Positions 1,345-37,975 of a stretch of DNA of 50,782 bases are shown piece by piece. The stretch lies in contig JAXHVD010000029.1 in assembly GCA_034189385.1 (NCBI GenBank), forward strand, positions 1 through 50,782. Direction: 5' to 3'. This stretch comes from Thermodesulfobacteriota bacterium (GTDB lineage: Bacteria; Desulfobacterota; Desulfobacteria; Desulfobacterales; C00003060). Every line of letters begins with the position of its first letter. The first letter of the stretch is position 1. A program made the position numbers and the translations under genes. The notes under the pieces are model-generated. The model searched no databases and had not been told where the DNA came from. It saw only the letters and a list, made by a program, of their open reading frames with translations.

Positions 1345-1383
1345 TCAGGAGCCAGGTAAACAGAATTCAAGGTGTGTCTCCAT
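1345..1383 (-). CDS. Conserved 12-aa leader peptide (uORF) copy A, METHLEFCLPGS
   Basis: 39-nt ATG..TGA ORF homologous to copies at 5475, 34577 and 37937; RBS is weak in this copy. Confidence 0.65.
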   Translation of the reverse strand: METHLEFCLPGS

Positions 1384-1590
1384 GTGCAGACATGAAACCT
1401 TCATAGGCCGACTGATAATGATTTTGAACCCTAGTTCCTCCTCAATCCTTGATCGGCCCAGCTCCAATTTCGCTGGCTTTCTTTGTGTCTCAACTTGGTC
1501 GTTTGCCTTTCCATTGACAAAATGCCTTGACTAAAAACACTGTCTGCCAATAATCCATTCACGAAGTTTAGGGAGCTTGGGCAAACACAC

Positions 1591-1762
1591 AAAAAAAGCC
1601 GAACTGCGCCTTTCATGACCTTCACGATGTCATGCTCGGCAGTCCGGCTGTCTTTGTTTTAGATCAACAGAGAGGTTGGCTTAGTGCCAACAAACAAAAT
1701 CCCAAAGACCCGTGGCTTTCCGCCACCGCCTCACGACGGCTTCGGTTTTGGCTGTTTGAGAC
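1591..1762 (-). ncRNA. GEMM-I cyclic dinucleotide riboswitch (A20 variant, putative 3',3'-cGAMP) with terminator
   Basis: AAAACCGAAGCCGUC-GUGA-GGCGGU GGCGGAAAGCCACGGGUCU...AGACAGCCGGACUGCCGAG, followed by GCAGUUCGGC and U7. Confidence 0.9.
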
Positions 1763-1819
1763 TCAGCTAAGCAACTTCTATTTTATTTTGTTGGACTTAC
1801 GTCCTCCAGAATGTTTATT

Positions 1820-1910
1820 CGCGTACCACACAATGATGAGGAAGTCAATCCCCTCAACCTGCCATTTTTTACGCAAAAACTACCTACGTTCTAATGCAAA
1901 AACTACCTAG
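1820..1910 (-). promoter_or_regulatory. sigma70-like promoter (TTGACT-17-TACGCG, extended TG) with two upstream GGTAGTTTTTGC boxes
   Basis: -35 at 1843-1848; boxes at 1873-1884 and 1896-1907; same geometry at 5615 and 9382. Confidence 0.6.
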
Positions 1911-2206
1911 TCAGAGGATGGCACCGGTGGAAAGAAATCGGTTTGGTGGGTTACCAACTGTTAGGTGAGGACACTCAAGCAAGAGTCGACGGCAAGATGA
2001 CATTGTTGGAAACGATCGTTAGAAGGTTGCGTGGAGATTGGTTCTGAATACCCGCAAAATATAGGGCTTCCAAAAGGTTACCTTCCATAGCAATACTAAA
2101 CATTCACCGAAACCATCCGGTAGCTGAGATCTGCCTGGCAGAGTTAACATCTGAGGAAGCCTCAGGTGGAAGAGTGCCACTACAATATATGGCGCCTTTT
2201 GAGCGC

Positions 2207-2237
2207 AAAAGGCAGGGCAAAATGACCCTGCCTCTTT
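2207..2237 (-). terminator. Intrinsic terminator, GGCAGGGTCA family
   Basis: AGGCAGGGTCA-TTT-TGCCCTGCCTTTT on the minus strand, downstream of the 2395-5352 gene. Confidence 0.75.
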
Positions 2238-2394
2238 ACGGAAACCGACATCTTCTGTGGACTGCTAACGGTGCGATGTTTTCTCCACTCAACTACGGAT
2301 TTGTGCCGGTAACAATGCCGAGCACCTGGCATTTCCCAGACCAAGATTCTGACTTCCCCAAAAACATCCTGCAAAAAAACAGAAAGCTTGATAG

Positions 2395-5352
2395 TTAGTT
2401 AATAGGATTTGCGGGATTATTGATCCCTTGCTGGCCTACGGCCACTGTGACAGTGTCTTGGGCTGTGTTGCCGTCACTGTCAAACACAACCAAGGTGACC
2501 TCATGGACCCCATCAGGGAGTCGGGCCTTTATCTTGCTACCCCTGTCCATTCCCATCATCTGTTGTCCATAGAACCACATGAACGAAGAGTCCGGCAGTA
2601 TCCTGTCCTCCAGATCCGTTCCCTTAGCTTCAAAGGACACTGTTCCCGCTGAAGGAAATAGGGTCTGTGCCTTCGGTTGGATGATATGAGCCCTTGGGGG
2701 TTTGCCTTCAAGAAAAAAGGTGTCCTCAGAAACAGCCTTAGTTGTGTTGAACCCATCTGTTGCAACCACCATGATCTTTGCCGACTCACTCCCTGCCAGG
2801 AGGGAAGTGTCCACCTCGTATTCATTCCCCTGTACATTCCACGCAACGGGATACCATGAGTTACGTTTTTTCGGAGAGTACAATATGGCAAAGTGCAGGG
2901 AGTCTCCATCCCTGTCCTTGGCGTCCCATTTGATGAATTTGTGCCCACCCCACTGGTCCCCCGGTTGGGGCGACGTAATTCTGACTCTTGGACGACTCTT
3001 GGACACCTGGATCGTGTCCAGGACCTCTTTCCCTTTCCTGAGGAGGATCTTAGATGTTCCCCTCTTTACCGGCACCTGGAAGTGGAAATCGGATCTACCG
3101 TATTCATTCCCCTCGCCATCCTTGAAGCTCGGCGTAAAGGGAATAACCAGCAGCTTTTTGTCCCGTCTGTTCCGGAATTCTATGGTGTAGTCCCCCTGTG
3201 ATGCCGAAGGCTCCCATGGTCTGCCAGGCATGATAAATACGGGCTTCAAGCTCCCTATGCCATTTTGATTGACATGGCCTGAAACATAACAGACCGGTCG
3301 GCGGCCCATTGGCGGTGGCGGCCTCCTCGCCGGCCGTGCGGGAGGCACAAAATAATCGAACATCCGCTCCCACCTGTAAGCAGATGTCCATTGTGCTGGG
3401 TGAGCGGCACGTGAACCACCAGACGCCCTGACGACCCACGCATGGATATAGGACATGAAGTCTGGGAAATAAGGCGGAATGACGGTGAACTTCCTTTCCC
3501 AGTAAGAATTATCAAGGGTTTCATATCCGTTAATCCAAGGCAAACGGGTGTCGAATCCAAATTCCCGAATATCCGACTGTTGGTAGCCATCTCCACACGG
3601 TTCGCTCGTATCACCGGGACATCCGTACAGCTCCACCCACTCAGAATCTATACCGTCTGCACTGCCTCCGGGAACATGGTCGCCCCAACCAGGACTGGGG
3701 CCGATGTTATGATCGAACTCGTGGGCCACCACGGAGTAGCTATAACCGCTTCTAAAATGTATTGTCGAATTCCCAGCTGCCACGTGTCCACAGCCGGGAT
3801 CAGTGCAAGGTACAGTTTCATCTGGGCCTGCGTACCCCACAGCCTGCGCAAAGCCTGCAGTGCTCGTGTATCCGAAAATCTGGTCTGGAAAGAGTGGCTC
3901 ATCCCTATACCAAGCCCAAAGAAAATTGTAGTAATTTATCAGTTCATCCAGGATATAGTGGCGCAGCATGGCACCATCTATTTCAGTTGGATGGATGTCG
4001 AAGGGGGGTAAGTAGGCCCTTACGAAGTTCACGTCTGCCACGGGGTATACTGTTTTCAGATAGCTCTCGCATGCGGCCATCTCTTCCTCATCCGGCAGTA
4101 CCGGGTGTCCGTCCGTGCCCTCATTGATGGGAATGATCCAGTAGGTGGGGATCTCCCTGGGCGTGAAGACAACAGTCACATCTGTAGAGTAAACCTCAGT
4201 GTCCAAAGAACGGTGGGTCAATCGAGCCCGAGCCTCAAATGTTACCTCTCCTTCTGTCCACGAGCTGGGGAGCAAAAAGTTCGCTGTATGGTTCAGGTTG
4301 TCTCTGCCTTCCTCGACCGGAGCTATGACAGGCTCAGGCAGTTCAACGTGTGGAGGGGCTGTTGCACGGATGCACAGCGGTGAACCTGGCAAGTCATGGC
4401 CGTCCCTGAAGCCGTATAGGTGTGCGTAGACAGGGGTGAAGGGTTCCCCATCGTTGACCTCCACATAGACCCTTGCAGCCGCATCTTTTCCTTCCACTAA
4501 AGGCAAAGTGTTGCCCCTGGTCTGTACTGCCTGGGTTATCTCTATAGGATCATTGATGATGCCGTCACCATTGGTGTCCGCCGTCTCGTAATCGAAACCT
4601 ATGGTGCCCACCTCAAGGGGGGGGAACATGGAAGACTTTCCCAATATGATTTCAATCATGTCGCTGAAATCGGACCAGACCCCCTCAGGGATCTCACGGC
4701 TCATAGCAGGATCTAGGGAGGATATGAAGACGCCCATCCTCACCGGATCAAGTACAGGCGCCGGGTGAAGATAGGCGTGCGTCCCAATCTCACGAAGATC
4801 TATGGCGAACTCCCAAACCCTGTGATTGGCACAGGTGGGGGCTAATGGAGGCACATATAGAATCTCGGTTCCGTCCCCCTCAAAGCATCCGAAACCTGCT
4901 GCCACGCTCGAGCGGGTGAGGTTTGGGAGAATGATGCTTCGGTCGCCAGAAATGGAAGTAAAATACTGCATTCGAAGGTCATAGGCTCCAGGCCACAAGG
5001 TGTAGATCCGATCAGTTAATGGGGTGATGGCCTCATCTGTGTTTACATCAAAGACAAGCTCGGCATAGTCTCCATCCGAGGATTCAGACCGAGGGTCTTC
5101 CGTTCCGTCGTCAAGGATATCTATGAGGATATAGAGTCTCATGGCATCGTTTTGGACAGCGATGAATCCTTCCTCGAAGTCTAGCCGACTCTCACTTGAA
5201 ACGAACCATTCTCGGAATCCGATCTCGCCATCGATGTCAGGAGGTCTAACAGCATAGGTTGAAGTTAAGGTTTCGCCAAGGGCCACCAAAGGCGTCCAAA
5301 GGACCAAAAGGCAGGCCAAGCCAAGAAGCTTTAACATCGAAAACGTCTTCAT
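2395..5352 (-). CDS. Large secreted protein: CBM9/DOMON-like N-terminus, putative zinc metallopeptidase (HExxH), C-terminal Ig/PKD-like domains
   Basis: Signal peptide MKTFSMLKLLGLACLLVLWTPLVALG; PxIDGxIxxxEW motif; VAHEFDHNIG followed by DH and DFMSY (Met-turn-like); C-terminal GxDxED...GVHEVTLVVxDSDG PKD-like motif. Confidence 0.75.
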   Translation of the reverse strand: MKTFSMLKLLGLACLLVLWTPLVALGETLTSTYAVRPPDIDGEIGFREWFVSSESRLDFEEGFIAVQNDAMRLYILIDILDDGTEDPRSESSDGDYAELVFDVNTDEAITPLTDRIYTLWPGAYDLRMQYFTSISGDRSIILPNLTRSSVAAGFGCFEGDGTEILYVPPLAPTCANHRVWEFAIDLREIGTHAYLHPAPVLDPVRMGVFISSLDPAMSREIPEGVWSDFSDMIEIILGKSSMFPPLEVGTIGFDYETADTNGDGIINDPIEITQAVQTRGNTLPLVEGKDAAARVYVEVNDGEPFTPVYAHLYGFRDGHDLPGSPLCIRATAPPHVELPEPVIAPVEEGRDNLNHTANFLLPSSWTEGEVTFEARARLTHRSLDTEVYSTDVTVVFTPREIPTYWIIPINEGTDGHPVLPDEEEMAACESYLKTVYPVADVNFVRAYLPPFDIHPTEIDGAMLRHYILDELINYYNFLWAWYRDEPLFPDQIFGYTSTAGFAQAVGYAGPDETVPCTDPGCGHVAAGNSTIHFRSGYSYSVVAHEFDHNIGPSPGWGDHVPGGSADGIDSEWVELYGCPGDTSEPCGDGYQQSDIREFGFDTRLPWINGYETLDNSYWERKFTVIPPYFPDFMSYIHAWVVRASGGSRAAHPAQWTSAYRWERMFDYFVPPARPARRPPPPMGRRPVCYVSGHVNQNGIGSLKPVFIMPGRPWEPSASQGDYTIEFRNRRDKKLLVIPFTPSFKDGEGNEYGRSDFHFQVPVKRGTSKILLRKGKEVLDTIQVSKSRPRVRITSPQPGDQWGGHKFIKWDAKDRDGDSLHFAILYSPKKRNSWYPVAWNVQGNEYEVDTSLLAGSESAKIMVVATDGFNTTKAVSEDTFFLEGKPPRAHIIQPKAQTLFPSAGTVSFEAKGTDLEDRILPDSSFMWFYGQQMMGMDRGSKIKARLPDGVHEVTLVVFDSDGNTAQDTVTVAVGQQGINNPANPIN

Positions 5353-5474
5353 AGAGCACCCCCTTTGCTCAGTCAAATGAGAGTTCAAGAAATAAGCGTC
5401 TGTTCCTCATACCTCCCACGCTTTTGCATTGTGAAAACGACAATTTATCTTCTAGCAAAACCACTCCTGCGGTG

Positions 5475-5513
5475 TCAGGAGCCAAGCAGGCACAATTTGA
5501 GCGGTTGCTCCAT
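5475..5513 (-). CDS. Conserved 12-aa leader peptide copy B, MEQPLKLCLLGS
   Basis: 39-nt ATG..TGA ORF with RBS-like AAGGGTGA 5 nt upstream. Confidence 0.7.
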   Translation of the reverse strand: MEQPLKLCLLGS

Positions 5514-5591
5514 GTGGATCACCCTTAAATAGGGTCAAAGGATAGATAGAAAAGAATGTCCTGCGTGAAGTGTTAGAACTCTCCAGATTGA

Positions 5592-5680
5592 TCTTTAGTA
5601 CGTTTGGGCTGCAGAGTCAATTCCTATAATTAGCTATTTTTAGTTAAAAAACTGACTAGTTATCATACGGAAACTACGCA
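5592..5680 (-). promoter_or_regulatory. TTGACT promoter with upstream GTAGTTT-type boxes
   Basis: -35 at 5615-5620; boxes at ~5650 (degenerate) and 5672. Confidence 0.5.
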
Positions 5681-5839
5681 GTCCTATGGGTTGCAGGTAG
5701 GTAGGAGCGCTTCCGACGGCCACTAGGTGTCAGGTGAGGCACGACATATTGTGGGATTGGCTAGCGAGGCGTCTAGTTCAAGTATGCTTGCCACGAGATG
5801 GGCTTAGAAACCAGACATTTCCATCCTAGATTTGTCGAG

Positions 5840-5950
5840 AATACCAGAAAAATATCAGCCTTTCAAAAGGTTACCTCACATAGCATTATAGCCAATCGGC
5901 GTGATCAAACAAGGGCTGGAGATAGACGACGTAGACTTAACATCTCAGGC
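5840..5950 (-). repeat. Inter-cassette spacer block (TTGTTTGATCxxGCCGATTGGC...AACCTTTTGAAAGGC)
   Basis: Homologous to 36948-37108 and 41435-41542, and more weakly to 2047-2156. Confidence 0.85.
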
Positions 5951-6001
5951 GAGCTTGGGCTGAAGGATACTACTACAAGATGTTGGGGTTTTGGGGACTA
6001 G

Positions 6002-6032
6002 AAAGGCAGGGCCAAATCCATGACCCTGCCTC
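6002..6032 (-). terminator. Intrinsic terminator, GGCAGGGTCA family
   Basis: GAGGCAGGGTCA-TGGATT-TGGCCCTGCCTTTC on the minus strand. Confidence 0.75.
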
Positions 6033-6083
6033 CAGTATCTCGTATTAGAATACTACATTAGGTTTATCCCAATCAGCTCACAA

Positions 6084-6711
6084 GTGAGTCTCCGCCTGCA
6101 GAGCAGGCGGCCTCAGGAAGCCCCCCTGAGGGGGGCGTTTACTTAGGGAAAGCCCCGTTGGGGCTCATATCATAGGTTAATCCAAATTCAGATCGGGTTG
6201 ATTACTATCGATGCTCTCCTGTTCACGGATATACCGGCGTACAGTTTCTTCATCCAGGCCAACTGTACTCACACAATACCCTCTGGACCAGAAGTGCAAT
6301 CCTGTGACCCTCTTATGGCCCAGTATGTGCCGATGGATACGTACCGCGCTTTTGCCTTTTAGAAACCCTATCACAAAGGCCACGCTGTACTTCGGAGCAA
6401 TCCTCAAGCACATATGTACATGGTCGGACATTAGATGCCCTTCCATGACTTCCACACCTCTTTGCCGACATAGATCCCGGAGAATCTCTCCTATTCGCTT
6501 TCTGTTCTTACCGTACAGCACCTTTTTACGGTATTTTGGAACAATCACGACATGGTATTTGCAATCCCAACGCACATGCGTTAAACTTTGCCAATCTTGC
6601 ATAGGTTCTTCCTCCTCCCCAATTGGGGCTTTCCCGGAGGAAGAGCCTATTTTATTTCACCCCGGATCGGTAGAACCTCTCCGGGTCCTCCACTAGAAGT
6701 GGAGGGTTTAG
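6084..6711 (-). mobile_element. IS200-family insertion sequence (ends approximate)
   Basis: tnpA flanked by subterminal hairpins CCTCCACT/AGTGGAGG, GCCCCCC/GGGGGGC and CCGCCTGC/GCAGGCGG; no TIRs. Confidence 0.85.
6177..6602 (-). CDS. tnpA: IS200/IS605 family Y1 HUH transposase
   Basis: YHVVIVPKYR, DHVH (HUH), KGKSA, FWSRGY, YIREQE motifs. Confidence 0.97.
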   Translation of the reverse strand: MQDWQSLTHVRWDCKYHVVIVPKYRKKVLYGKNRKRIGEILRDLCRQRGVEVMEGHLMSDHVHMCLRIAPKYSVAFVIGFLKGKSAVRIHRHILGHKRVTGLHFWSRGYCVSTVGLDEETVRRYIREQESIDSNQPDLNLD

Positions 6712-6718
6712 GATAGAA

Positions 6719-9129: not shown

Positions 9130-9299
9130 AAAAAAAGCCGAACTGCGCCTGTCATGACTTTGACGATGTCATGCTCGGCAGTCCGGCTGTCTTTGTTTTA
9201 GATTCAAAGAGAGGTTGGCCTGATGCCAACGACAAAATCTCAAAGACCCGTGGCTTTCCGTCCCCACCTCACAACGGGTTTGGCCTTGGCTGTTTGAGA
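9130..9299 (-). ncRNA. c-di-GMP-I (GEMM-I, G20) riboswitch with terminator
   Basis: AAGGCCAAACCCGUU-GUGA-GGUGGG GACGGAAAGCCACGGGUCU...AGACAGCCGGACUGCCGAG plus terminator with U7. Confidence 0.93.
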
Positions 9300-9300: not shown

Positions 9301-9324
9301 TCAGCCAAGGAATTTGAGCTCCAT
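9301..9324 (-). CDS. Possible 7-aa uORF MELKFLG directly 5' of the riboswitch
   Basis: RBS AGGAG 6 nt upstream; similar to uORF MKLKFLVSA at 44100. Confidence 0.35.
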   Translation of the reverse strand: MELKFLG

Positions 9325-9358: not shown

Positions 9359-9466
9359 CCGTTACCACACTAGCGCCCAAAAGTCAATAGCCTAAAGTGA
9401 CCATTTTTGAATGCAAAAACTACCTGGTTTTTTATCGTAGAACTACGATACTTGGCGGAAACTACG
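9359..9466 (-). promoter_or_regulatory. TTGACT-17-TAACGG promoter with three upstream GTAGTT boxes
   Basis: -35 at 9382-9387; boxes at 9418, 9441 and 9460. Confidence 0.6.
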
Positions 9467-17121: not shown

Positions 17122-18804
17122 ATGGCCTCAATAGAGAGTATTAGAATAGAATTAAAAGGAATTGGTCGGATTCTTTTTAACAGAAATCTGTGCGTGCCCC
17201 TTTACCAGCGTTCGTACGCTTGGGAAGAGTCACACGTGCTAGATCTTTTCAATGATATTCAAGGAGCAATGGCCGCAGGAGAGCACGAATATTTCATAGG
17301 AACAATAGTCACAACAAAGAATAGAACTGATCGCCCGGAAATTGCAGACGGGCAGCAAAGATTAGCGACAGCGACAATCCTCCTGGCCGCAATAAGGGAT
17401 TGCTTTCACGACAACGGAGACCACGATAGAGCTGAAACAATCACATCTGATTTACTTCACAAAAAAGAGCTGAAGACCCTTGAGCTGATACCGAAATTGA
17501 AACTTAACGATGGTGACCACGATTTTTTTGTGAAAAGAATCCTTCTGAATCCCAATAATCCGGACCGTGATCAGTCACCAGCTAAACTGTCTCACATACG
17601 AATAGAAAAGGCGGCGGAGCTGGCAAAACAGCATGTTTTGAATCTCGCTTCGATGCCAGACAGTACCGAAAGACTTACGGATCTCGTGTCCTATTTGACG
17701 GACTCAGTTGTCGTGATATGGGTAAAGGTGCCAGATGATACTAACGCCTTCACCATTTTTGAAACACTTAACGACAGGGGATTAAGTCTTGCTATTTCTG
17801 ACCTGCTAAAGAACTTTCTGTTTGGACTATCTTGCAGCAGATTGCCAGAGGTTCAGCGATCATGGACCAGTATGGTCAGTGCGTTGGAGTCTATAGAAGA
17901 TGAGCGGATAGTGGTAACCTTCATCCGACATTTTTGGTCTTCAAAACATGGGCTCGTTCGGGAAAAGGAACTATACAATAGCATAAAACGGAAAATATCT
18001 TCTACGACCGCGGCTGTGTCATTTGCACGCGACCTAGAGAGGAACGCACAACTTTATGCAGCTATTCTCAATACCAAAGATGGCCTTTGGAATAAATATG
18101 GTATGACATGCCAACGCCATATGGAAGTCATCAATTTGTTGCGAATGGCCCAAATCCGCCCACTGATTCTAGCAGTTCTCGACAAATTCGCAGTGAAAGA
18201 GGTAAGAACAACGATAAGGAATATGGTTTCGTGGTCAGTCAGGTTTTTGGTCCACGGCGGCGTTGGCGGCGGCACCCTCGAGAATCATTATAGCCAGGCT
18301 GCTAAAGAAGTACGGGCTGGTAAGCTCAAGACGGGCACGAGCCTGTTTAAAAGGCTCAAACCTATTGTTCCCACCAATGCTCAATTCCGCTCGTCATTCA
18401 TGACCGCTACTGTTTCAAAAGCTTACCTGGCTCGATATTATTTGCGAGCCTTAGAACAGCGACATATCGGTGAAAAAGAGCCTGAGCTTATTCCAAATGA
18501 CGATTCTGGAGTTGTTAACCTTGAACATGTCCTTCCTCAGAATCCGTCTAATGCATGGAATCACTTATCACCGGATGATCAGGCCGTTTTGGTACGCACA
18601 TTGGGTAATTTGGCACTTCTAAAGAACAGAATCAACGTAAGAGCTGGTAACGACAGTTTCAGTTACAAGAAGGCATTCTATGCGAAATCCAAATTCGAAC
18701 TAACAAACATGATAGCAACAGAAAGAACTTGGAACCAGGAAACGATTCAAAAACGGCAGAGTGAGCTGGCAAAACTCGCTGTAAAAGCCTGGCCCCTTAA
18801 ATAA
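17122..18804 (+). CDS. gmrSD: GmrSD-family type IV restriction enzyme (DUF262 + DUF1524 HNH)
   Basis: PLYQRSYAW, DGQQR, FETLNDRG, LEHVLPQ...LGNLALL...N. Confidence 0.92.
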   Translation: MASIESIRIELKGIGRILFNRNLCVPLYQRSYAWEESHVLDLFNDIQGAMAAGEHEYFIGTIVTTKNRTDRPEIADGQQRLATATILLAAIRDCFHDNGDHDRAETITSDLLHKKELKTLELIPKLKLNDGDHDFFVKRILLNPNNPDRDQSPAKLSHIRIEKAAELAKQHVLNLASMPDSTERLTDLVSYLTDSVVVIWVKVPDDTNAFTIFETLNDRGLSLAISDLLKNFLFGLSCSRLPEVQRSWTSMVSALESIEDERIVVTFIRHFWSSKHGLVREKELYNSIKRKISSTTAAVSFARDLERNAQLYAAILNTKDGLWNKYGMTCQRHMEVINLLRMAQIRPLILAVLDKFAVKEVRTTIRNMVSWSVRFLVHGGVGGGTLENHYSQAAKEVRAGKLKTGTSLFKRLKPIVPTNAQFRSSFMTATVSKAYLARYYLRALEQRHIGEKEPELIPNDDSGVVNLEHVLPQNPSNAWNHLSPDDQAVLVRTLGNLALLKNRINVRAGNDSFSYKKAFYAKSKFELTNMIATERTWNQETIQKRQSELAKLAVKAWPLK

Positions 18805-30650: not shown

Positions 30651-30926
30651 TTATCTCAAAGCGACGTGGATTCTTCGACCGACCGCCTTGGCGAATTTTT
30701 CCAGGGTAGAGAGGCGTATATCGGTTGAATGGTTTTCCATGCGAGAAACGACAGACTTGGTGGTTTTCAGGCGTTTTGCAATTTCCTCTTGAGTAAGGCC
30801 GGCTTCAAGACGAGCCTGTCTCAACAGGATCCCCAACTTAAACGTCTCAAGCCGTTCGTCGTATCCCTTCCAGAATTCAGGGTCTTTTTTTATACGTTTC
30901 TTCTTGTATCTTTGGAAGTCGCTCAT
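30651..30926 (-). CDS. HigA-like XRE HTH antitoxin
   Basis: RLEAGLTQEEIAKRLKTTKSVVSRMEN. Confidence 0.9.
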   Translation of the reverse strand: MSDFQRYKKKRIKKDPEFWKGYDERLETFKLGILLRQARLEAGLTQEEIAKRLKTTKSVVSRMENHSTDIRLSTLEKFAKAVGRRIHVALR

Positions 30927-31276: not shown

Positions 31277-31410
31277 AGAAGATGTTCGCATATATGCGAA
31301 CATTTGTCAAGCACTGGGTTGCCCGATAGTTGTCTTGACTGGGTTCTTGCGTGAAAGGGGCGAGAGGTACAGGAATGGTGAGTGCCCAGGTTTTGGTGCC
31401 GAGTTCAGGG

Positions 31411-31737
31411 TCAGGTTTTGTCCAAATCCAGGAGGCCTGCATTCAAGAGTCTCTTGGCAATTTCGTATATGTCCTTCTTGTCCCCTTCTTTTCTTATTCC
31501 TGCCGCCAGATTGTAAACAATCACCGTTTGTTTGTCGATCTTGTAGATAATCCTATATCGTCCAGCAGCGTGTACAGAACGGAATCGGGCCAGGTCTTTG
31601 ACCAAGCCCTTTCCCTGCTTGTCCGGTTCATGAGACAGCTTCTCTATTCGATTCAAGATCTCACGCTGTATTATTTTGTCCGGGATTCTTGCGATGAGGC
31701 CGAGGCAGGTGTCGGTGATGAGAACCCTGTAGTTCAA
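31411..31737 (-). CDS. RelE/ParE-family toxin
   Basis: GKGL..LARFRS...GRYRIIY...GIRKEGDKKDIY. Confidence 0.88.
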   Translation of the reverse strand: MNYRVLITDTCLGLIARIPDKIIQREILNRIEKLSHEPDKQGKGLVKDLARFRSVHAAGRYRIIYKIDKQTVIVYNLAAGIRKEGDKKDIYEIAKRLLNAGLLDLDKT

Positions 31738-31997
31738 AGCGCCAGCCTTTTCTGCGCTTCCGAAAGTGAATGGACCCTGCCGGCTCTGACATCCTCAATA
31801 CCCTTTTTTAGATTTTGCATAAGCTCGGGATCAGACAGGATCTCCAGGGTCTCAAGGAGGCCTTCATACAATTCCCAGCTCATGACGGCCATGACTTCCT
31901 TGTTTCGTCTTGTAACGGCAAGGACCTTATCCTTGGCGGCCTCATCTGGGAGTTTCATGAATCTGTTCCTTGCTTCCGTTATGGGTATTCTTTCCAT
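31734..31997 (-). CDS. Phd/YefM-family antitoxin
   Basis: PITEARNRF...AVTRRNK.VMAVMS...ETLEILSDPELM; TGTACA-type operator repeats upstream (~32018-32050). Confidence 0.92.
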   Translation of the reverse strand: MERIPITEARNRFMKLPDEAAKDKVLAVTRRNKEVMAVMSWELYEGLLETLEILSDPELMQNLKKGIEDVRAGRVHSLSEAQKRLAL

Positions 31998-32582
31998 TGG
32001 TAGCCCCCCCCATCAAATGTACATGTGAATGTACGTCAATATGGACATCATGTCAACCGGATTCGTGAAAGCCTTTACGGCGGTGAATACTCCTTTCCAC
32101 AAGGAGGGGACTAAATTCAAACACTCTTGGGCGTACCAAGAAACCCAGGAGGCCGTGCCTACGACAACGAATCCGCGGGTCGCCTCTTCTAAAGGTCACT
32201 TCATGGCGGCCGGCCTCTGAAGCACGGAGGGAAATCTCCGAGTCGGGGGGTCAACTGTCTGGGCTCGGGCTATCTTCTCGCTTTCCAGTTTCCACAGCTT
32301 GTGATATCCATTTGGAATTGTTATTCTTTGACAATTGTAGACAAGGGGTAGGTAATCTACATTCTCTTCTAGGCTGGGACAATCGTCGAATACCTTGGCG
32401 TTGTGCCCCATCTTTTTCGTTGGGGTATTGGCAGGAAAGCGACACTGGTATTGTTTCAGTAGGAGGTCTGGATGTTGCTCTGGTAGTATTGTGATATACA
32501 GAACCCATTGTTATGGGAAAGGGCCGAAGTCAGCATAACATCTGTTGGAGCCCAAAGACCAATTGAAAGGAGACAATTTGAC

Positions 32583-33422
32583 ATGGATTTTAGCAGAGCA
32601 TTCGTAGTGCCTTTGGCGCTGGTGGCCGTGATTAGCTCAGTGTCAGGATGCGTGGCTGTTTCTAGGCACCATAGTAGCAGCGTAGTACAGTACCTTTACC
32701 CGGAGCAGAAAGAGCCGGTTGAGACGCCTGCGATTCCTGTGTTATCTTTGCCACTAAAAGTCGGTATAGCATTTGTTCCAGATGCTTCCGACTGGCAGAA
32801 CAATCTCACCGAAAGAGACAAAATGGACTTGATGAAGGAAGTAAGTGCCCACTTCAAGAAATATGAATTTGTCAAATCAATTGAATTGATCCCTTCTGCC
32901 TATTTGACCCAAAATGGCAGTTTTGGAAACCTGGATCAGATTCGAACCATGTTTGGCATCGATGTCATTGCCCTGCTTTCATACGATCAAACTCAATTTA
33001 CCGATGAAGGATTGGCTTCGATAACATACTGGACATTAATTGGGGCTTACATTATTCCCGGTGAGAAAAACGATACACATACCATGATGGACGCAGCGGT
33101 TTACGACATCAAGAGCCGTAAAATGTTATTTAGAGCTCCAGGGATAAGTCACATAAAGAGTAAAGCGACACCCATAAATGTGACCGAGCAACTACGTATG
33201 GATGGCCTTGATAGTCTAAAGGAAGCGAGCCAAGACCTTGTGAGAAGCCTTGACGAGCAGCTCGCACTTTTCAAAGAAAAGGTCAAGGATACTCCACAAG
33301 ATTACCAAATAGTCCCCAAGCCTGGTTATTCGGGGGGAGGTAGCCTTGATGGCTTATTTATAGTCCTCTTTAGTATTTTGGGCGGTTACTGGTTATGGCA
33401 AAAAAGGAACGGAAAAGTATAA
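32583..33422 (+). CDS. Rhombotarget lipoprotein with GlyGly-CTERM
   Basis: Lipobox VSGC; SSSVVQYLYP; LPLKVGIAFVP; C-terminal SGGGSL + TM helix + basic tail. Confidence 0.9.
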   Translation: MDFSRAFVVPLALVAVISSVSGCVAVSRHHSSSVVQYLYPEQKEPVETPAIPVLSLPLKVGIAFVPDASDWQNNLTERDKMDLMKEVSAHFKKYEFVKSIELIPSAYLTQNGSFGNLDQIRTMFGIDVIALLSYDQTQFTDEGLASITYWTLIGAYIIPGEKNDTHTMMDAAVYDIKSRKMLFRAPGISHIKSKATPINVTEQLRMDGLDSLKEASQDLVRSLDEQLALFKEKVKDTPQDYQIVPKPGYSGGGSLDGLFIVLFSILGGYWLWQKRNGKV

Positions 33423-33424
33423 TT

Positions 33425-34036
33425 ATGCGCATACCAAAAGTCACATGCTTAATCCTTGTAGTAAGCGCAATATCAAGCATTTCACCTCAAATAGCCTCGG
33501 TATTCATTTTTGACCGAAGTGCTATTCTAAAGGGTGAAGTCTGGCGTATTCTGACTTGTCACTTTGTACATTTCTCCAACCTCCATCTAGTTTATAACCT
33601 ATTCGCATTTGGAATTGCCGGATGGATTATTGAAAACAAAGACTATCGTCACTTTGGCCAGCTCTGCATTTTGATGGCTTCACTCATCAGCATATCATTA
33701 TTCATTCTTGAACCCGATGTGAGCTATTATGGAGGTCTGTCGGGAATGGCATGTGGTTCCATTTATTATTGTGCTCTTTGGGGCACTAGTGAAAACCGAT
33801 CTTGGCGAACAATATGCATGTTAGTAATATTCATTGTCCCTATCAAAATCGCAGCCGAAATATGCAATAGTGCGTCAGTATTGCCTTATTGGGGACAACA
33901 AACATTTGTTCCAATGCCAACCAGCCATCTTATTGGCACCGTAGTGGCAACCTTGCACTATCTTATTGATAAATATAAACAAACGGCTCAAGCAAATCGC
34001 TCAACCCGACAGCAAGAAGCTTGGCGTTTCGGATAG
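33425..34036 (+). CDS. Rhombosortase (rhomboid intramembrane serine protease)
   Basis: GEVWRILTCHFVH...HLVYN, YGGLSG (catalytic Ser), SHLIG (catalytic His); adjacent to a GlyGly-CTERM target. Confidence 0.9.
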   Translation: MRIPKVTCLILVVSAISSISPQIASVFIFDRSAILKGEVWRILTCHFVHFSNLHLVYNLFAFGIAGWIIENKDYRHFGQLCILMASLISISLFILEPDVSYYGGLSGMACGSIYYCALWGTSENRSWRTICMLVIFIVPIKIAAEICNSASVLPYWGQQTFVPMPTSHLIGTVVATLHYLIDKYKQTAQANRSTRQQEAWRFG

Positions 34037-34329
34037 TCTTCGCCATTTAGAAATTCAGCGCCAGGTGCGAAAAAGCCCAGCAAAAAGCCCAGGGTCAGAT
34101 CTTAAATATTAATTATTTGGCTTGCCGATCATGTTCACGACCTGTCCCGTCACTGATCATAGGGTGAATCCAAACCATAATTTTAGGGACGCCCTTCAGT
34201 TTTGATTTCTGAGAAGTAACTATCCTTGAGTATTTGAATATGCTATGAGAAACCATGTTTAAAAAGACGAATCCCCAACAAAACTTATTTGGTGTGGACA
34301 CGGAGTTGTCCGAGGGTCACACCACACCT

Positions 34330-34507
34330 GGTAACCCACCAAACCCATTTCTTCCCACCGGTCCCATCTCTTGACTAGGTAGTTTCTGCATCAAAAACTA
34401 GGTAGTTTTTGCAAAAGGATCGTAGTTTTTGCGTCATAACTACCAAGGTTTTTTATGAAAAATGCGCAGGTTTTCCAGTTGAATATATCCTCTTGATTTG
34501 GCACAAG
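34330..34507 (+). promoter_or_regulatory. Upstream block homologous to 1860-1955 with three GTAGTTT boxes and a degenerate promoter
   Basis: Boxes at 34379, 34402 and 34422; 34330-34380 is near-identical to the reverse complement of 1904-1955; TTGAAT at 34479. Confidence 0.65.
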
Positions 34508-34576
34508 CAAATTGGAGGAGTTTGCCAGTCTAAGGTATTCTTTACTATCCTTTGACCCTATTCACCGGAGGTTCAC

Positions 34577-34615
34577 GTGGAGAAACCCCTCAAATGCTGC
34601 CTGCCTGGCTGCTAA
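34577..34615 (+). CDS. Conserved 12-aa leader peptide copy C, MEKPLKCCLPGC
   Basis: GGAGG RBS 5 nt upstream of GTG; TAA stop at the homologous position. Confidence 0.72.
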   Translation: MEKPLKCCLPGC

Positions 34616-34690
34616 CGGGACGTTGTCTGTTGGAAATGGAGAGCTTCGTACCTTCATTATTTTACTTCGACCGTCTGTAAAGGGGAGAAA

Positions 34691-36772
34691 ATGAAAACAA
34701 CAAGGCATTGTCTGGGTTTGGGTGTTTTGAAGGGTGCACTGCTACTGATGACACTAACAGCAGTCTTCATGACACCTTGTGGGTCTGCTTCTGCCACTAC
34801 GCTCATCTTTGAGGAGGACTTCGAGAGCTATGCAGAGGGAAGTAACCTTTTCGGTCAGGGAGGCTGGTTTCATGAGCCTCTTGAATACGGAGTACCAAGC
34901 ACAGATGTGACGTTGGTTGGTACTGGTTCAGGTTTAGGGTCCAAATGTGCAAATGGCAGGCTTGCCCCAGGGCATAGAGGTTATTCCTATATCTCGAACT
35001 TGTTTCTTGATGAAATGAATTTGAACACGGTTTACGTGCTTACCTTTAATGCGTTTGCATCTTCGGGTGATGAATATCCCCGTTCGCATAATTCCGGCGT
35101 GAAGTTTCATTCCAATGAGTGGCGGAATGTTGTTGGGTGGGCCTGTTCTAACAATCCGTGTCAAGGCTATCCCCCAGGACCAGACTATGTTGGGTGGGGG
35201 TTTGGTGCGAGATGGATTGCAGGCGGTGATGTCTCAGACTACCAATATGTGCAACACGACTGGCCAGGTCATTATGACACGCCGGTAACTTTGGTCACGG
35301 TACTAGACCCGGTCAATGAAGAGACTTATGGATTCCTTATTGATGGCGAGGACACCTATGAAACGAACCACTTTGCCATGGATATGTCCCGATTTCTGAC
35401 TATTGATGGGATTCGAATTCAGCAGGATTACAGGTCGCCATGTTTTGCTATGGAGATAGACGACATAAGGCTTATAGCTAATGAAGCCCCGGTAGCTGCA
35501 ACGGTCACGTTCTTTACTGACGAGTCGGATTGGCTTGCCGCAGCTGGAAACGTTGAGGTTTTTTCCGTCACTTCCGCCAACGTAGCAACCGCCGACGAGG
35601 TGACTTCCCCTCCTATTGACTTCGATCCATTGGGCAACACACTGACTTTTCAAGCGGTTAACACTGGACTGTCGCGAACGTTTATCCTTGAAGCCCTTGA
35701 ATCGGGGGCTGAGATCGTTTTCCGAAATGGAAGCTATGTCGAGGAGTTGTCCATCGGTGCTCATGAGGTCCATGAAGATGATGACTGGCAGATGACGTTT
35801 AGCGGAGGTCCAGCCTTGTATGCATTCGCATTTGAGCTGATTGTAAACAATGACCCGGGAGTTGGTGGCGAAGAGTCGTTCTCAGTATATGGGCTTGGTG
35901 GTTCCCTGCTCGACACGGATTCTCCCCCCACTTCGCAGGGAGTGCGCGGGGGGTTCTATGGCGTGGTGTCTGATGTCCCAATTGGGCGTGTTAAATTTAA
36001 TGAGGACACTGGATCTGATGATATTGATCTTGCGGAGTTCAGATTCGGGGGAAACGACGAAGTCCCTATTTCAGACCCATGTGCTGGCCTTGGCGGCGAT
36101 ACTGACGGTGACAAGATCTGCGATGACGGAGATGGTAGCGGAACAGCTGGGGACAATCCTTGTACAAATGGACAAACCAGCAACTGCGACGACAACTGCC
36201 TTCTCACCCCCAATGCTGACCAAGCTGATTCCGACGGCGACGGGATCGGGGACGTGTGTGAAGGTGGATGCATTTGTGATCTGAACTATGACGGTATCTG
36301 CGATGAGCAGGACTTGATTCTATTCGGAGGAAGTCACGGATGGGGTGCTTGGGACTGCAATGAACCTGGAGTGGAATGCCTATGCGACCTGGTGAAGGAC
36401 GATAATGGTACATGCGATGGCTTAGATGGGGCTGCGTTCCAAGAGGCATACTCCAGGTTTGAATGCCGGCTGGGAGACGAACCGGCGGTTCACACCTTAA
36501 TGCCGGCTTCCATTCCCGCCTCTCAACGCGGAATTCCACAAAAAGTAAAAATTAAGGGGCTGAACCTCGGTGCCACCCAGGGCAGTAGCTCATTGCATAT
36601 TGGCGGCAGGACTTGGTTTGCGGGACATCCGAAGATAAAGGTATGGGAGGACGACAAGATCAAATTCAAGGTTCCCAATTACGTGGGCACGTTCCCGAAA
36701 TACAAGGACATATGGGTAACAGTAAACGGTAAAGACAGCAATAAGATGGTACTTGAGATAACGGCACCTTGA
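34691..36772 (+). CDS. Secreted multidomain protein: lectin-like beta domains, TSP3/dockerin-like Ca-binding Cys-rich region, C-terminal IPT/TIG-like domain
   Basis: Signal peptide; FEEDFE; DNC...NADQADSDGDGIGDVC; CDLNYDG; KVKIKGLNLG...WEDDKIKFKVP. Confidence 0.82.
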   Translation: MKTTRHCLGLGVLKGALLLMTLTAVFMTPCGSASATTLIFEEDFESYAEGSNLFGQGGWFHEPLEYGVPSTDVTLVGTGSGLGSKCANGRLAPGHRGYSYISNLFLDEMNLNTVYVLTFNAFASSGDEYPRSHNSGVKFHSNEWRNVVGWACSNNPCQGYPPGPDYVGWGFGARWIAGGDVSDYQYVQHDWPGHYDTPVTLVTVLDPVNEETYGFLIDGEDTYETNHFAMDMSRFLTIDGIRIQQDYRSPCFAMEIDDIRLIANEAPVAATVTFFTDESDWLAAAGNVEVFSVTSANVATADEVTSPPIDFDPLGNTLTFQAVNTGLSRTFILEALESGAEIVFRNGSYVEELSIGAHEVHEDDDWQMTFSGGPALYAFAFELIVNNDPGVGGEESFSVYGLGGSLLDTDSPPTSQGVRGGFYGVVSDVPIGRVKFNEDTGSDDIDLAEFRFGGNDEVPISDPCAGLGGDTDGDKICDDGDGSGTAGDNPCTNGQTSNCDDNCLLTPNADQADSDGDGIGDVCEGGCICDLNYDGICDEQDLILFGGSHGWGAWDCNEPGVECLCDLVKDDNGTCDGLDGAAFQEAYSRFECRLGDEPAVHTLMPASIPASQRGIPQKVKIKGLNLGATQGSSSLHIGGRTWFAGHPKIKVWEDDKIKFKVPNYVGTFPKYKDIWVTVNGKDSNKMVLEITAP

Positions 36773-36798
36773 TTCGGATTAGTAATCTTTCACCACAG

Positions 36799-36829
36799 AA
36801 GGCGGGCTCAGAAATGGGGCCTGCCTCTT
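36799..36829 (+). terminator. Intrinsic terminator (divergent GGCAGGGTCA family)
   Basis: AGGCGGGCTC-AGAAATG-GGGCCTGCCT-CTTG. Confidence 0.65.
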
Positions 36830-36947
36830 GTAGTCATGCCCACATGTAGTATATGTTACATTTAGGGATAATGTTTCATCTCCTGGTAGTTATCTTGATT
36901 TTGTCCCCTTTTTAGATTTTATTCGACTGTCCTCAATTCCCAAGAAT

Positions 36948-37108
36948 CTCTGAAATGCGAGGTCTCCTCTGTCTATCTACACCCCTTGTTTGATCCCGCC
37001 GATTGGCGATCTTGGTATGTTATTCACTCCGCGCACTGCATCGGGCCGAGTGTCGCTCTTGCTATAAGAAGCCAACCTTTTGAAAGGCCCGCATGTTTCG
37101 GGTATTCA
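36948..37108 (+). repeat. Inter-cassette spacer block
   Basis: CTCTGAAATGCGAG, TTGTTTGATCCCGCCGATTGGC (36986) and AACCTTTTGAAAGGC (37074). Confidence 0.85.
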
Positions 37109-37936
37109 TCTCATCTTGTCGTTCCTAAGTCTTCAGGCACCCCTCCACGTCATCCAATCCTGACCCTTGGTTCAACTCATGAATACGGTCTTTCTTCGGG
37201 AAAGATACAGTATCCACAGTATTGATATCGCCTGTGGTAATGCTTTTAATTTGTTATCGACAGAATTCTGGGGCCGGTGGCAAGACGTGCCCTGACCGCA
37301 CTGACATAAGACAATAGGATGAGACACTGACCCCGGCCCCGGTACTGCCGCACCTCATCATGCGTTCAGGCCAGGTGTGAACGAGATGGCAGGGCGAAAA
37401 GACGGATGTCATGCCTACGGGCTGCGAAAACATCACCCCACATAGTGTAAAGGCATTCTCAGGGGAAAGATTGGCACTTCGACCCATTGACCTTTGATTC
37501 ATTACTCTGTCCTAGTCTTTGACGAAGCGGGGAGACTCTGGACCGTTTATCTTTTGCCAAGACAATCGTCTGCGGATATCTGGACGATGTGAGCAAGCTA
37601 TCGGAACCCCCCATACTGCTCTTGCGGCCCCAATATGGACGTAATAGTCGCTTCAACTCCGCCCGTTGTGCACGCCTTCGCAAAAAAGATTGACACCGCC
37701 TAAGGGCCTTGGTATTAGGTCAGCATATTTGCGCACGAGGCATGTGCCGTGCTAGCTAAGAACTCAAAGTGACGCTGTACCTCCCGCTGAGAAGTTGTTT
37801 CCCCTCTCCTGGTCCACGCTGACTCTCTTAAAGGCTATCCACTCCGTAAAAAAGATCGGCACGGTTCGTTTGCCCGATGTCCATGATTATTCAAGTAAAG
37901 CTACACCGTACTTCTACCTGTGGAGCGTATACGCAC

Positions 37937-37975
37937 ATGGAGAGACCCCTGAGGCTCTGCCCACCTAGCTCCTGA
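37937..37975 (+). CDS. Conserved 12-aa leader peptide copy D, MERPLRLCPPSS
   Basis: 39-nt ATG..TGA ORF ending ~25 nt before the riboswitch. Confidence 0.68.
   Translation: MERPLRLCPPSS

Follow-up and report, generated by a model that had tools for sequence, protein, structure and literature searches.

A candidate translated mini-ORF with a stop-codon hairpin in mRNA leaders of Desulfobacterales

Introduction

What are the four 39-nt open reading frames that precede four different genes in the window (the whole stretch of 50,782 nt analysed here), and does such an element act through the peptide it could encode, through its RNA, or through the ribosomes that may pass over it? The question is addressed below from the copies in the window, from their relatives in other genomes, and from comparison with known leader systems.

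The four copies in the window

All four ORFs are found on the sense strand exactly as the earlier note had described them, and copies A to D align without indels (Table 1). The two ribosome-binding sites that it had reported are likewise present, as SD-like sites of copies B and C, and the distances it had given, for three copies to the main coding sequence and for the fourth to a riboswitch, are roughly right. That riboswitch is a separate, known element, which starts 24 nt after the copy D mini-ORF and is abutted by the copy D hairpin. Folding of the stop-codon hairpin, here called P2, gives a minimum free energy of −24.7 kcal/mol (z −1.87) for copy A, −12 kcal/mol (z −0.81) for copy B and −18.9 kcal/mol (z −2.55) for copy D; that of copy C (z +0.48) is not significant taken alone. 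About 65 nt upstream of the copy C mini-ORF lies a putative promoter with its ATTGGAGGA, as judged by eye against the stronger promoters of other copies in this genome. Between the riboswitch and the subtilase coding sequence sits a fifth, degenerate copy (19.1 bits, E 0.0015).

Table 1. Positions of the leader elements and of the genes behind them in the window.
Feature	Position	Strand	Description
Copy A target gene	1..1251	−	FG-GAP repeat protein, signal-peptide-like N-terminus; cut by window end
Copy A P2, long-loop variant	1293..1354	−	GGCUCCUGA pairs with UCAGGAGUCC, ~45 nt downstream
Copy A mini-ORF	1345..1383	−	METHLEFCLPGS*, 12 codons, ATG to TGA
Copy B target gene	2395..5349	−	984-aa protein, signal-peptide-like N-terminus, without Pfam family
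Copy B short P2	5463..5482	−	7 bp, GCUCCUG/CAGGAGU; TGA inside hairpin
Copy B mini-ORF	5475..5513	−	MEQPLKLCLLGS*
Copy B SD-like site	5519..5526	−	AAGGGTGA, 5 nt ahead of ATG
Copy B tentative hairpin P1	AGGGT of SD-like site with ACCCT at 5531-5535	−	Seen in MFE fold
Copy C putative promoter and TSS-proximal ATTGGAGGA	34479..34519	+	Sigma-70-like, TTGAAT-17 nt-CACAAG
Copy C SD	34567..34571	+	GGAGG, 5 nt ahead of GTG
Copy C mini-ORF	34577..34615	+	V/MEKPLKCCLPGC = (V/M)EKPLKCCLPGC, GTG to TAA
Copy C degenerate P2	34612..34633	+	8 bp; begins in last codon and stop
Copy C target gene	34691..36772	+	693-aa protein, signal-peptide-like N-terminus, without Pfam family
Copy D mini-ORF	37937..37975	+	MERPLRLCPPSS*
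Copy D canonical P2	37967..38001	+	AGCUCCUGACAGG pairs with CUCUGUUGGGAGCU; TGA within 5′ arm
c-di-GMP-I riboswitch	38000..38116	+	Rfam match, 50 bits, E 7e-7
Fifth, degenerate copy	38446..38515	+	ACG replaces ATG; CTCAAAATGTGC core retained; P2 absent
Target gene of copy D and riboswitch	38572..41229	+	Subtilase (Peptidase_S8)

Family size and downstream genes

The recurrence of the four copies is far above chance: an HMM built from them (nhmmer) retrieves 15 further copies at E<0.1 from the genome of 4.13 Mb, of which ten reach E<1e-5, bringing the genome to about 19 copies including those of the window. A covariance model (R1) gives 18 matches in this genome and also hits 38 of 61 related genomes and 21 of 151 genomes drawn class-wide, figures to be read with the understanding that its hits by construction favor conserved columns and that related genomes are not independent. 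At least 118 exact pattern matches were found, for the most part in Desulfobacterales MAGs, and CUCAAA-NUN-UGC is kept in at least 13 genera. No Rfam family matches the mini-ORF/hairpin element, and a search of the literature found no description of it. The earlier claim of a real, conserved sense-strand leader family outside Rfam is thereby supported: by sequence comparison the four ORFs are true copies of a large and, it appears, undescribed mRNA-leader family of sulfate-reducing Desulfobacterales.

The genes served had been called secreted-protein genes, which is true of this genome, where several target proteins are exported as judged by eye, but fails in others. Targets across the family are diverse and often cytoplasmic, with GAF, GYD, CBS, cNMP-binding, sigma-70 and adenylate-cyclase proteins among them, so that secreted products are not the sole kind, and no tie to cysteine or sulfur metabolism was found among the downstream genes.

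Start, frame and length of the mini-ORF

The 12-codon mini-ORF has the consensus MEKPLK[MLIF]C[LIM]PxS* around a conserved core of L-K-(hydrophobic)-C. Among 123 distinct covariance-model hits, a start codon occupies the aligned site in 111 (101 ATG, 9 GTG, 1 TTG), and 100 contain a compact ORF of 8-13 codons, which is exactly 12 codons long in 66; the 12 hits without a canonical start at that site and the 23 without a compact ORF are mostly low-scoring. An SD-like element stands at canonical spacing family-wide, the anti-SD hybridization energy reaching a mean minimum of −4.3 kcal/mol in 8-nt windows starting at −15 to −11, against an upstream background of about +1 (n = 192), and a 10-codon subclass carries AGGAGG 5 nt ahead of its ATG. 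The Lys-x-Cys block could be used as an anchor in 130 of 145 hits. Of these, 101 have, in its frame, both a start 1-6 codons upstream of the block and a stop 2-8 codons behind it, as compared with 1 and 3 for the other two frames. The start precedes the L-K-x-C block by 12 nt in 94 hits, by 6 nt in 15 and by 15 nt in 1, and 4 hits have out-of-frame distances (11, 13 and 4 nt); length variants thus mostly remain in frame, the two common classes differing by 6 nt.

In-frame stops are absent from codons 2-8, where column shuffles predict 3.2 (P about 0.008), and the counts in the other two frames match the shuffle expectation. Codons 9-12 hold more premature stops than expected (13 versus 3.3), and 11 of the 123 hits form a subclass that ends after 8 codons as MEKxLKMG*, with Gly replacing Cys. 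Single-copy indels, counted by eye, break the frame in about 12 cases and keep it in about 3. Codons 2-4 differ in distant genera (MKILLKLC, MPEYLKLC, MLKILKLC), where frame and length are nevertheless kept. TGA, TAA and TAG all occur as the stop. SD spacing, start, stop and the single shared frame support, at the level of sequence, a translated leader ORF. To this extent the earlier proposal of a ribosome-dependent regulatory leader is supported; its cysteine or redox sensing and its GGAG/CTCC pairing are not.

The stop-codon hairpin

Only the downstream hairpin P2 is solidly supported. Its 5′ arm runs from the final one or two codons through the stop codon into the 5-7 nt behind it, so that the stop-codon region is paired with a downstream CTGTTGGGAG-like arm. 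P2 cells are paired in 84.4% of cases versus 40-54% in slid controls, double changes occur in 11 of 14 pairs, none of 500 shuffles attains such values, and the mean fold z is −2.85 versus −0.16 in a control region. Mid-helix U-G and G-U pairs are frequent at the first two stop-codon bases, which, together with the fixed orientation to downstream genes, argues for an RNA rather than a DNA element. The first stop base remains U (UG 40, UA 22 and CG only 3, of 71); a C-G pair would be the better one at this site. Family-wide support for an upstream hairpin P1 is weak, and P2 is the one solid helix, as the region upstream is poorly structured (z −0.35). Upstream of the SD, a pyrimidine-rich, G-poor tract extends from −40 to −20 (C 27%, G 12%).

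Behind P2 no conserved effector structure follows, the information of the tail being at most 0.5 bit. Only 10 of 111 copies have a start codon following the GGGAG arm, no U-tract is seen by eye behind P2, no terminator/antiterminator pair is conserved in the leader, and no excess of C over G is found downstream ((C−G)/(C+G) = −0.04 to −0.13). A search of the genome found no complementary partner. The pairing of GGAG at codon 2 with CTCC at codon 12 finds no support, as GGAA and GAAA variants retain CTCC (by eye) and there is no covariation.

Coding versus RNA-level conservation

The variation had been read as coding selection, a view that the family does not bear out. In frame, the synonymous fraction amounts to 0.196, versus 0.152 and 0.181 in the other two frames, and it lies below the column-shuffle mean of 0.214, with 966 of 1000 shuffles at or above the observed value; no synonymous excess in the mini-ORF frame was found relative to the other frames or to column shuffles. 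Entropy by codon position (0.955, 0.921, 1.136) shows weak periodicity, the third position being only slightly higher. Because several synonymous sites are nearly fixed in the ungapped ORFs (CTC in 55 of 76, AAA in 70 of 76, R as third base of codon 9 in 72 of 76), much of the conservation lies at the RNA level, and the RNA sequence itself is therefore also under selection. Alternation of TGA and TAA, also offered as a coding sign, is no such evidence, because it covaries with the hairpin partner.

Residue 8, described as an invariant cysteine, is Cys in 62 of the 76 ungapped ORFs, always encoded by TGC or TGT; the remainder have Gly (10) or one of Phe, Ser and Val (4). The sequence C-x-P-C-S occurs in many copies from Desulfobacteraceae. 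A peptide-specific role is disfavored by the lack of a synonymous excess and by the variable Cys.

Proposed mechanism and alternatives

Given its conservation, the structure of P2, the geometry of SD, start and stop and the specificity of the frame, the element is probably a portable 5′-leader module of Desulfobacterales mRNAs that combines a translated regulatory mini-ORF with a stop-codon hairpin. The module lies behind a promoter, whose predicted TSS is about 65 nt upstream in this genome, and comprises the pyrimidine-rich, G-poor tract, the SD, a mini-ORF of 8-12 codons and then P2. Ribosomes would translate the mini-ORF, as geometry and frame specificity suggest, and a ribosome reaching or pausing at the stop codon would necessarily melt P2. 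The opening of P2 may be the switch, the fold of the leader being set by ribosome traffic, and this traffic would decide the fate of the downstream mRNA, be it a main gene at a distance of 50-300 nt or a directly following c-di-GMP riboswitch. The output may be exerted on transcription elongation or on the stability or processing of the mRNA, and it is possible that the L-K-x-C peptide arrests ribosomes in a sequence-specific way. Through this one kind of leader module, ribosomes would probably control many unrelated genes.

A serious though unlikely alternative is a non-coding 5′-UTR motif, structured or bound by a protein or an sRNA, for instance as the target of a global RNA-binding regulator or as an orphan riboswitch-like aptamer, whose AUG...UGA frame is incidental or a ribosome decoy. 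Conservation at the nucleotide rather than the amino-acid level would fit it, as would the strongly conserved P2 with its frequent mid-helix wobble pairs at the first two stop bases, and one module before dozens of unrelated genes is what a regulon-wide RNA operator would look like; several ANGGA-like motifs of the element (SD, AUGGA, CAGGA) also bear a possible resemblance to CsrA-type sites. Such a motif, however, would not call for an SD canonically spaced from an almost invariant ATG, start and stop in one frame, two common length classes 6 nt apart and in frame, or depletion of in-frame stops in codons 2-8, nor for codons 2-4 that diverge freely in distant genera at fixed length. One solid helix is also few for an aptamer, and the genome search yielded no complementary partner. 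In a true RNA-only element, synonymous changes in CUCAAAAUGUGC would matter, and the start codon and frame would not.

It is doubtful, too, that the module is constitutive, a strongly translated 5′-proximal mini-ORF and a stable hairpin forming a generic mRNA stabilizer or expression insulator, in which bound ribosomes, together with a stem-loop close to the 5′ end, would shield the transcript from 5′-end-dependent decay and which would have spread by duplication before many genes. A generic stabilizer would need neither CUCAAA-NUN-UGC across so many genera nor a stop codon inside the hairpin, and 5′ stabilizers of this kind are known chiefly in Firmicutes; yet the pyrimidine-rich tract and good SD do look like an efficient initiation region, and the module stops at P2 with no conserved effector, precedes very diverse genes as well as riboswitches with their own regulatory logic, and is multi-copy, with its 18 matches in this genome. 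Very improbable is the arrest or attenuation peptide of the earlier note, which would sense cysteine or redox state via Cys8 with the GGAG/CTCC pairing. Cys is the commonest residue at this position, C-x-P-C-S recurs, and several targets in this genome are exported; but Gly takes its place throughout one subclass, only one codon could be regulatory, no terminator/antiterminator pair accompanies it, targets are unrelated to cysteine or sulfur metabolism, and the codon-2 variants keep CTCC. Cysteine or redox sensing by the leader is thus unsupported.

Relation to known leader systems

In translational attenuation of the ermC, cat-86 and cmlA type, a leader ORF of 9-19 codons has its own SD and places its 3′ part in the 5′ arm of a hairpin that sequesters the SD or start of the resistance gene directly downstream, and the leader ribosome remodels the RNA. 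The present module likewise has an SD-equipped short ORF whose 3′ part forms the hairpin 5′ arm; here, however, a start codon seldom lies behind the 3′ arm (10 of 111), the main gene or riboswitch is 25 to more than 300 nt away, and dozens of unrelated genes are served with no evident antibiotic link. TnaC (tnaCAB) and SpeFL (speF) are Rho-coupled stop-codon arrest peptides with a small leader ORF and a conserved peptide core. The module resembles them in ORF and core and, as proposed here, in a stop-codon event as the regulatory step, but the region behind its stop is not C-rich, G-poor and rut-like, as its skew indicates, its stop varies among TGA, TAA and TAG, its peptide has only 8-12 residues, and it carries no synonymous-substitution signal for peptide-level selection. 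As in classical amino-acid leader-peptide attenuators such as trpL and hisL, a 5′-leader mini-ORF, here putatively translated, has a hairpin behind it that begins where the ORF ends; unlike in those, there is no run of regulatory codons and no conserved U-tract terminator or antiterminator, no Rfam leader family matches, and the downstream genes are not biosynthetic.

A further parallel comes from Corynebacterium, where the ilvB-II motif, a candidate structured RNA, has reportedly proved to be a uORF linked with a single operon (ilvBNC) and with amino-acid control (PMC10272879). Both are leader motifs from comparative analysis whose conserved region holds a uORF; whereas ilvB-II belongs to that one operon (PMC10272879), the present family precedes many unrelated genes.

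A recurrent mini-ORF in Desulfobacterales leaders

The four 39-nt ORFs that the earlier note had described in mRNA leaders of the window (copies A to D; family consensus MEKPLK[MLIF]C[LIM]PxS*) were confirmed exactly in position and align without indels, and its RBS-like sequences and distances to neighboring features were likewise borne out (Table). An HMM built on these copies yielded 19 matches at E<0.1 in the organism's own 4.13-Mb assembly, and a covariance model of the element (CM R1; 91 positions, one helix), constructed from 18 own-genome copies, has 18 matches there. Beyond this assembly, CM R1 found the element in 38 of 61 genomes in a draw of relatives (29 of 36 for the same genus; 9 of 25 genera) and in 21 of 151 genomes in a class-wide draw (13 of 77 genera; completeness >=85%), in both cases under stricter filters that drop weak matches. 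When one genome of every species was searched with a degenerate exact pattern, at least 118 stretches matched; among the matches listed, nearly all titles are Desulfobacterales, Desulfobacteraceae, Desulfosarcina, Desulfatiglandales or "Deltaproteobacteria" MAGs, with a few bins deposited as Balneolales, Bacteroidales, Anaerolineales, Omnitrophota, Rhodothermales or Pseudomonadota. Both CM and pattern matches are skewed to conserved columns, related genomes are non-independent, and the P-values quoted below are descriptive.

Coordinates of the mini-ORFs and c-di-GMP-I riboswitches in the window
Feature	Position	Strand	Remark
Copy A mini-ORF	1345-1383	-	39-nt ORF
Copy B mini-ORF	5475-5513	-	39-nt ORF
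Copy C mini-ORF	34577-34615	+	39-nt ORF
Copy D mini-ORF	37937-37975	+	39-nt ORF
c-di-GMP-I riboswitch	1635-1756	-	Rfam gathering score
c-di-GMP-I riboswitch	9174-9294	-	Rfam gathering score
c-di-GMP-I riboswitch	38000-38116	+	Rfam gathering score; starts 24 nt after copy D
c-di-GMP-I riboswitch	44130-44246	+	Rfam gathering score

The own genome also holds diverged and partial forms. A diverged extra copy (ATGAACAAAGACCTCAAAATGGGCCGA..., contig C3 ~93971(+)) falls below the HMM and CM thresholds and was recovered by a mismatch scan. A half-copy on contig C12 (~17415-17480(+), locus L014) retains the 5′ part of the mini-ORF (ATGCAGAAACATCTCAAAATGTGT...) without the downstream hairpin; since it is open in frame across an AAGGAGG RBS to the downstream ATG, the leader ORF may here be fused to the main ORF.

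Probable selection on the reading frame and on the RNA

The case for translation rests on the geometry of the ORF across the relatives draw, from which all 124 CM matches (123 distinct) were taken, together with 22 from more distant genera. An ATG, GTG or TTG start is aligned in 111 of the 123 distinct matches, and 100 of the 123 contain an ORF of 8-13 codons (12 codons in 66, 10 in 14, 8 in 11, 13 in 6, 11 in 2 and 9 in 1). When a start one to six codons before and a stop two to eight codons after the Lys-x-Cys block are sought, the proposed frame provides both in 101 of 130 anchored sequences (of 145), the other frames in 1 and 3. Measured from the start, the block lies at 12 nt in 94 sequences, at 6 nt in 15 and at 15 nt in one; four more have out-of-frame spacings (11, 13 or 4 nt), and in 31 the block was not found. 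Codons 2-8 contain no in-frame stop against 3.2 expected, a count taken from sequences unselected for ORF length, while the other frames contain as many as expected. In the distant genera, codons 2-4 vary freely (MKILLKLC..., MPEYLKLC...) with length and frame preserved. Upstream of the start, hybridization to the anti-Shine-Dalgarno (anti-SD) sequence reaches a minimum of -4.3 kcal/mol in windows starting at -15 to -11, versus an upstream background of about +1 (n=192), and the 10-codon class displays AGGAGG-N5-ATG at textbook spacing. As judged from sequence, the element thus possesses what is expected of an attenuator: a short leader ORF with a start, SD and stop.

A reading in which the element is an RNA-only operator, and the frame incidental, has to be weighed against these counts, and we regard it as rather doubtful. 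What speaks for it is the texture of the substitutions. Synonymous changes make up a fraction of 0.196 in the proposed frame versus 0.152 and 0.181 in the other two and do not exceed column shuffles, the entropies by codon position are 0.955, 0.921 and 1.136, and several synonymous sites are nearly fixed. On the side of a nascent-peptide arrest leader, the peptide core of L5, K6, a hydrophobic residue at 7 and C8 is conserved. Also counting against translation, about 10% of matches are without a start and about 19% without a compact ORF, mainly low scorers, and among singleton indels the frame-breaking ones are, by eye, commoner than those in frame. In the 8-codon class, MEKxLKMG*, the Cys and the C-terminus are gone. 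Our reading is that selection has probably preserved the ORF and its geometry, and the RNA sequence with it, a claim that stops short of the peptide.

The MEKxLKMG* subclass deserves attention in its own right. At nine same-genus loci (L023, L064, L193, L195, L201, L202, L205, L229 and L232), TGC CTA has become GGC TGA, and the stop-codon hairpin is retained along with the now redundant in-frame TGA. This naturally occurring form could help to tell what the Cys and C-terminus contribute apart from what the hairpin does. It also bears on the earlier proposal that the peptide senses cysteine or redox state: C8 belongs to the conserved core, but it is the only Cys and is replaced by Gly in this subclass, leaving the idea poorly supported and, in our estimate, very improbable. 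Selenocysteine insertion, suggested by a UGA followed by a hairpin (SECIS), was discarded on the grounds that about a quarter of copies end in TAA or TAG (A at the second stop base in 22 of 76) and that the read-through frame is, by eye, unconserved.

A hairpin built around the stop codon

P2 is a hairpin in which the end of the mini-ORF, from its last codons through the stop to the bases just beyond (GCUCCUGACAGGAC), pairs with a downstream UUCUGUUGGGAGC; conservation stops about 6 nt past it. Among the 18 own-genome copies, 79.6% of P2 cells are paired versus about 42% in slid controls, and the partner of the second stop base covaries with it (GC in 6, GU in 6, AU in 5). Among 71 CM-aligned rows from 31 genomes, an alignment that leans toward structure because it was fitted to the model, pairing reaches 84.4% versus 40-54% in slid controls, with double changes at 11 of 14 pairs and none of 500 shuffles matching the observed values. 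The mean folding z-score of P2 is -2.85 (n=191) versus -0.16 for a control stretch. Of the window copies, D has a canonical P2 (z -2.55) and A one with a long loop (z -1.87); P2 is short in copy B and degenerate in copy C. The first stop base remains U, opposite G or A, and C-G is almost never seen there, a point in favor of translation. The flanks align too poorly for RNAalifold to yield a consensus on the whole alignment (-40..+110); the structure tests were therefore performed on the hand-set helix and the CM alignments, and several of the pairings were read by eye.

Two further helices, both convincing by eye, were considered upstream. P1, an anti-SD-like AACCU paired with AGGU, is a tentative candidate for a hairpin that would sequester the SD. 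Its base identities are associated (ACCT/AGGT versus ACCC/GGGT, 29 and 9 versus 3 and 8; Fisher 0.0014, uncorrected for phylogeny) and its inner pairs slightly exceed shuffles, with the motif pair present in only 58-65 of 192 sequences (~30%); its energies are no better than those of composition-matched shuffles (duplex z 0.01; region z -0.45). P0, in which a pyrimidine tract pairs with codons 2-4, was dropped after a weak energy test (z -0.33). Folding z-scores for the upstream regions tested are -0.35 and -0.45 versus -0.16 for the control. The element also has a pyrimidine-rich, G-poor tract at -40 to -20. Further upstream, sigma-70-like promoters were recognized by eye ~65-100 nt before the mini-ORF in own-genome copies, which would place the element within the 5′ UTR. 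TTGACC beside copies B and C was rejected as a -35 box since the -10 would land on the ATG and better promoters lie further upstream, and a sigma-54 promoter from CTGGCTCC...TTGC was rejected for wrong spacing (by eye, four window copies).

Known leader classes and a possible mechanism

In agreement with the earlier note's impression that no known RNA family matches the motif, an Rfam gathering scan of the window returned only the four c-di-GMP-I riboswitches, none on the motif, and relaxing the cut-off to E<=1 on 16 loci with the motif brought up no family, only a chance sR38 match elsewhere. Full-text searches of open-access main texts found no description of the element. Classical leader-peptide attenuators carry clustered codons for the amino acid that regulates them and mutually exclusive antiterminator and terminator structures with a U-tract, whereas the element has no repeated residue, only the one Cys or, in the subclass, Gly, and neither a U-tract nor a conserved second hairpin after P2; with no U-tract behind it, P2 was rejected as an intrinsic terminator. 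In erm/cat attenuation the hairpin after the leader ORF masks the SD or start codon of the gene under control, whereas here an ATG follows the GGGAG arm by 3-11 nt in only 10 of 111 cases, and a second ORF or SD sequestration after P2 was set aside on this count; the first downstream ORF begins 11-431 nt past the mini-ORF stop. Rho-dependent leaders of the tna, mgtA and corA type contain a C-rich, G-poor rut site, in contrast to the +39 to +250 region downstream of the uORF (C 0.19-0.21 versus G 0.23-0.25), which has no such skew. Nor did a scan of the own genome, allowing up to three mismatches, find a complementary site for a trans-acting partner besides the copies themselves. In its mode of action the element would come closest to erm/cat-type or stop-codon-arrest leaders, but its sequence does not show the effector features that define each.

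The best-supported reading of these sequence patterns is that the element is a translated regulatory uORF, in which a ribosome terminating on the mini-ORF stop would have to melt P2 and thereby open it. As there is no terminator, sequestered SD or second ORF, rut skew or complementary partner, we infer that the output would act on the fate of the transcript, through stability or processing or through elongation. A constitutive 5′ stabilizer is a further alternative, which we consider quite unlikely.

A bolder version of the translated-uORF reading, unlikely in our view, is a regulon-wide nascent-peptide sensor, in which the L-K-(hydrophobic)-C mini-ORF would arrest the ribosome at or near the stop in response to one signal (a small molecule, sulfide/thiol chemistry or translation status), opening P2. 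One portable leader would then put dozens of unrelated genes per genome under a ribosome-read signal across Desulfobacterales, including those for exported proteins, GAF and GYD proteins, cyclases and a sigma factor, and genes already behind c-di-GMP riboswitches. To our knowledge, arrest peptides serve one operon each, so such a sensor would be a new way to build a regulon.

A leader peptide or uORF normally serves a single operon and answers to a single metabolite. The uORF leader described here is notably set apart as portable, multi-copy and regulon-like: one sharply conserved mini-ORF with a stop-codon hairpin precedes many unrelated genes, at up to 18 matches per genome and in at least 13 genera, and can also stand immediately before c-di-GMP riboswitches. 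If translated and regulatory, it would define a post-transcriptional regulon in an order of sulfate reducers that matters environmentally but has seen little genetic study, and a compact, testable ribosome-control system of ~90 nt without a terminator or SD-sequestering effector. If it acts as RNA only, Rfam would be lacking a large orphan class of cis-regulatory RNA. In both cases the element merits an entry in annotation resources, since at present it is unannotated and invisible.

Neighboring riboswitches and downstream genes

All four c-di-GMP-I riboswitches of the window fall inside a span of 50 kb. Behind each come a terminator-like hairpin and a gene whose product is exported or large; on the strand of the first (1635-1756), copy A is found ~250 nt downstream of it. 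A c-di-GMP-I-clan riboswitch directly follows P2 at copy D and at 3 of 20 loci chosen by eye for GEMM-like tails, only these 3 passing the Rfam gathering threshold. The tandem arrangement of mini-ORF element and GEMM-I riboswitch is real, yet confined to a minority of loci. The two riboswitch-only leaders of the window contain SD-preceded mini-ORFs of their own just before the aptamer, MELKFLG* at 9301-9324(-) and (V/M)KLKFLVSA* at 44100-44129(+), whose M-x-L-K-F core resembles the family and whose stop lies in or beside a small hairpin. CM R1 matches neither; they are possibly shortened relatives of the family uORF.

Direct repeats of GTAGTTTTTGC occur in the window at 34379-34432(+), 1873-1906(-) and 9413-9423(-) (7 matches with at most one mismatch versus 0.76 expected); the leaders that follow ~60-130 nt downstream belong to copy C and to two c-di-GMP riboswitch genes, and similar repeats precede further own-genome copies (contigs C34, C25, C44 and C62). 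They look like the binding site of a common transcription factor, and these leaders may therefore form one transcriptional regulon.

The genes behind the element were described in the earlier note as encoding secreted proteins. This holds for the own genome, where most downstream proteins have, by eye, signal-peptide-like N-termini; family-wide, the Pfam content is diverse. Among 74 first downstream ORFs, identified with a simple ORF caller whose calls may in some cases be wrong, 31 have no Pfam match. The remainder include GAF (9), GYD (4, plus one under the cut-off), SCO4226-like (3) and beta-helix (3) proteins, two each of ankyrin, adenylate cyclase with AAA_16 and FG-GAP, and single CBS, cNMP-binding, sigma-70, OmpA, SBP, M20 peptidase, alpha-amylase, TPR and subtilase proteins. 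The 280-aa protein downstream of the copy at ~130887(-) on own-genome contig C34 ends in ...VPAPATVLLLGSGLIGLAGLRRRSRRGTA, a putative PEP-CTERM sorting signal.
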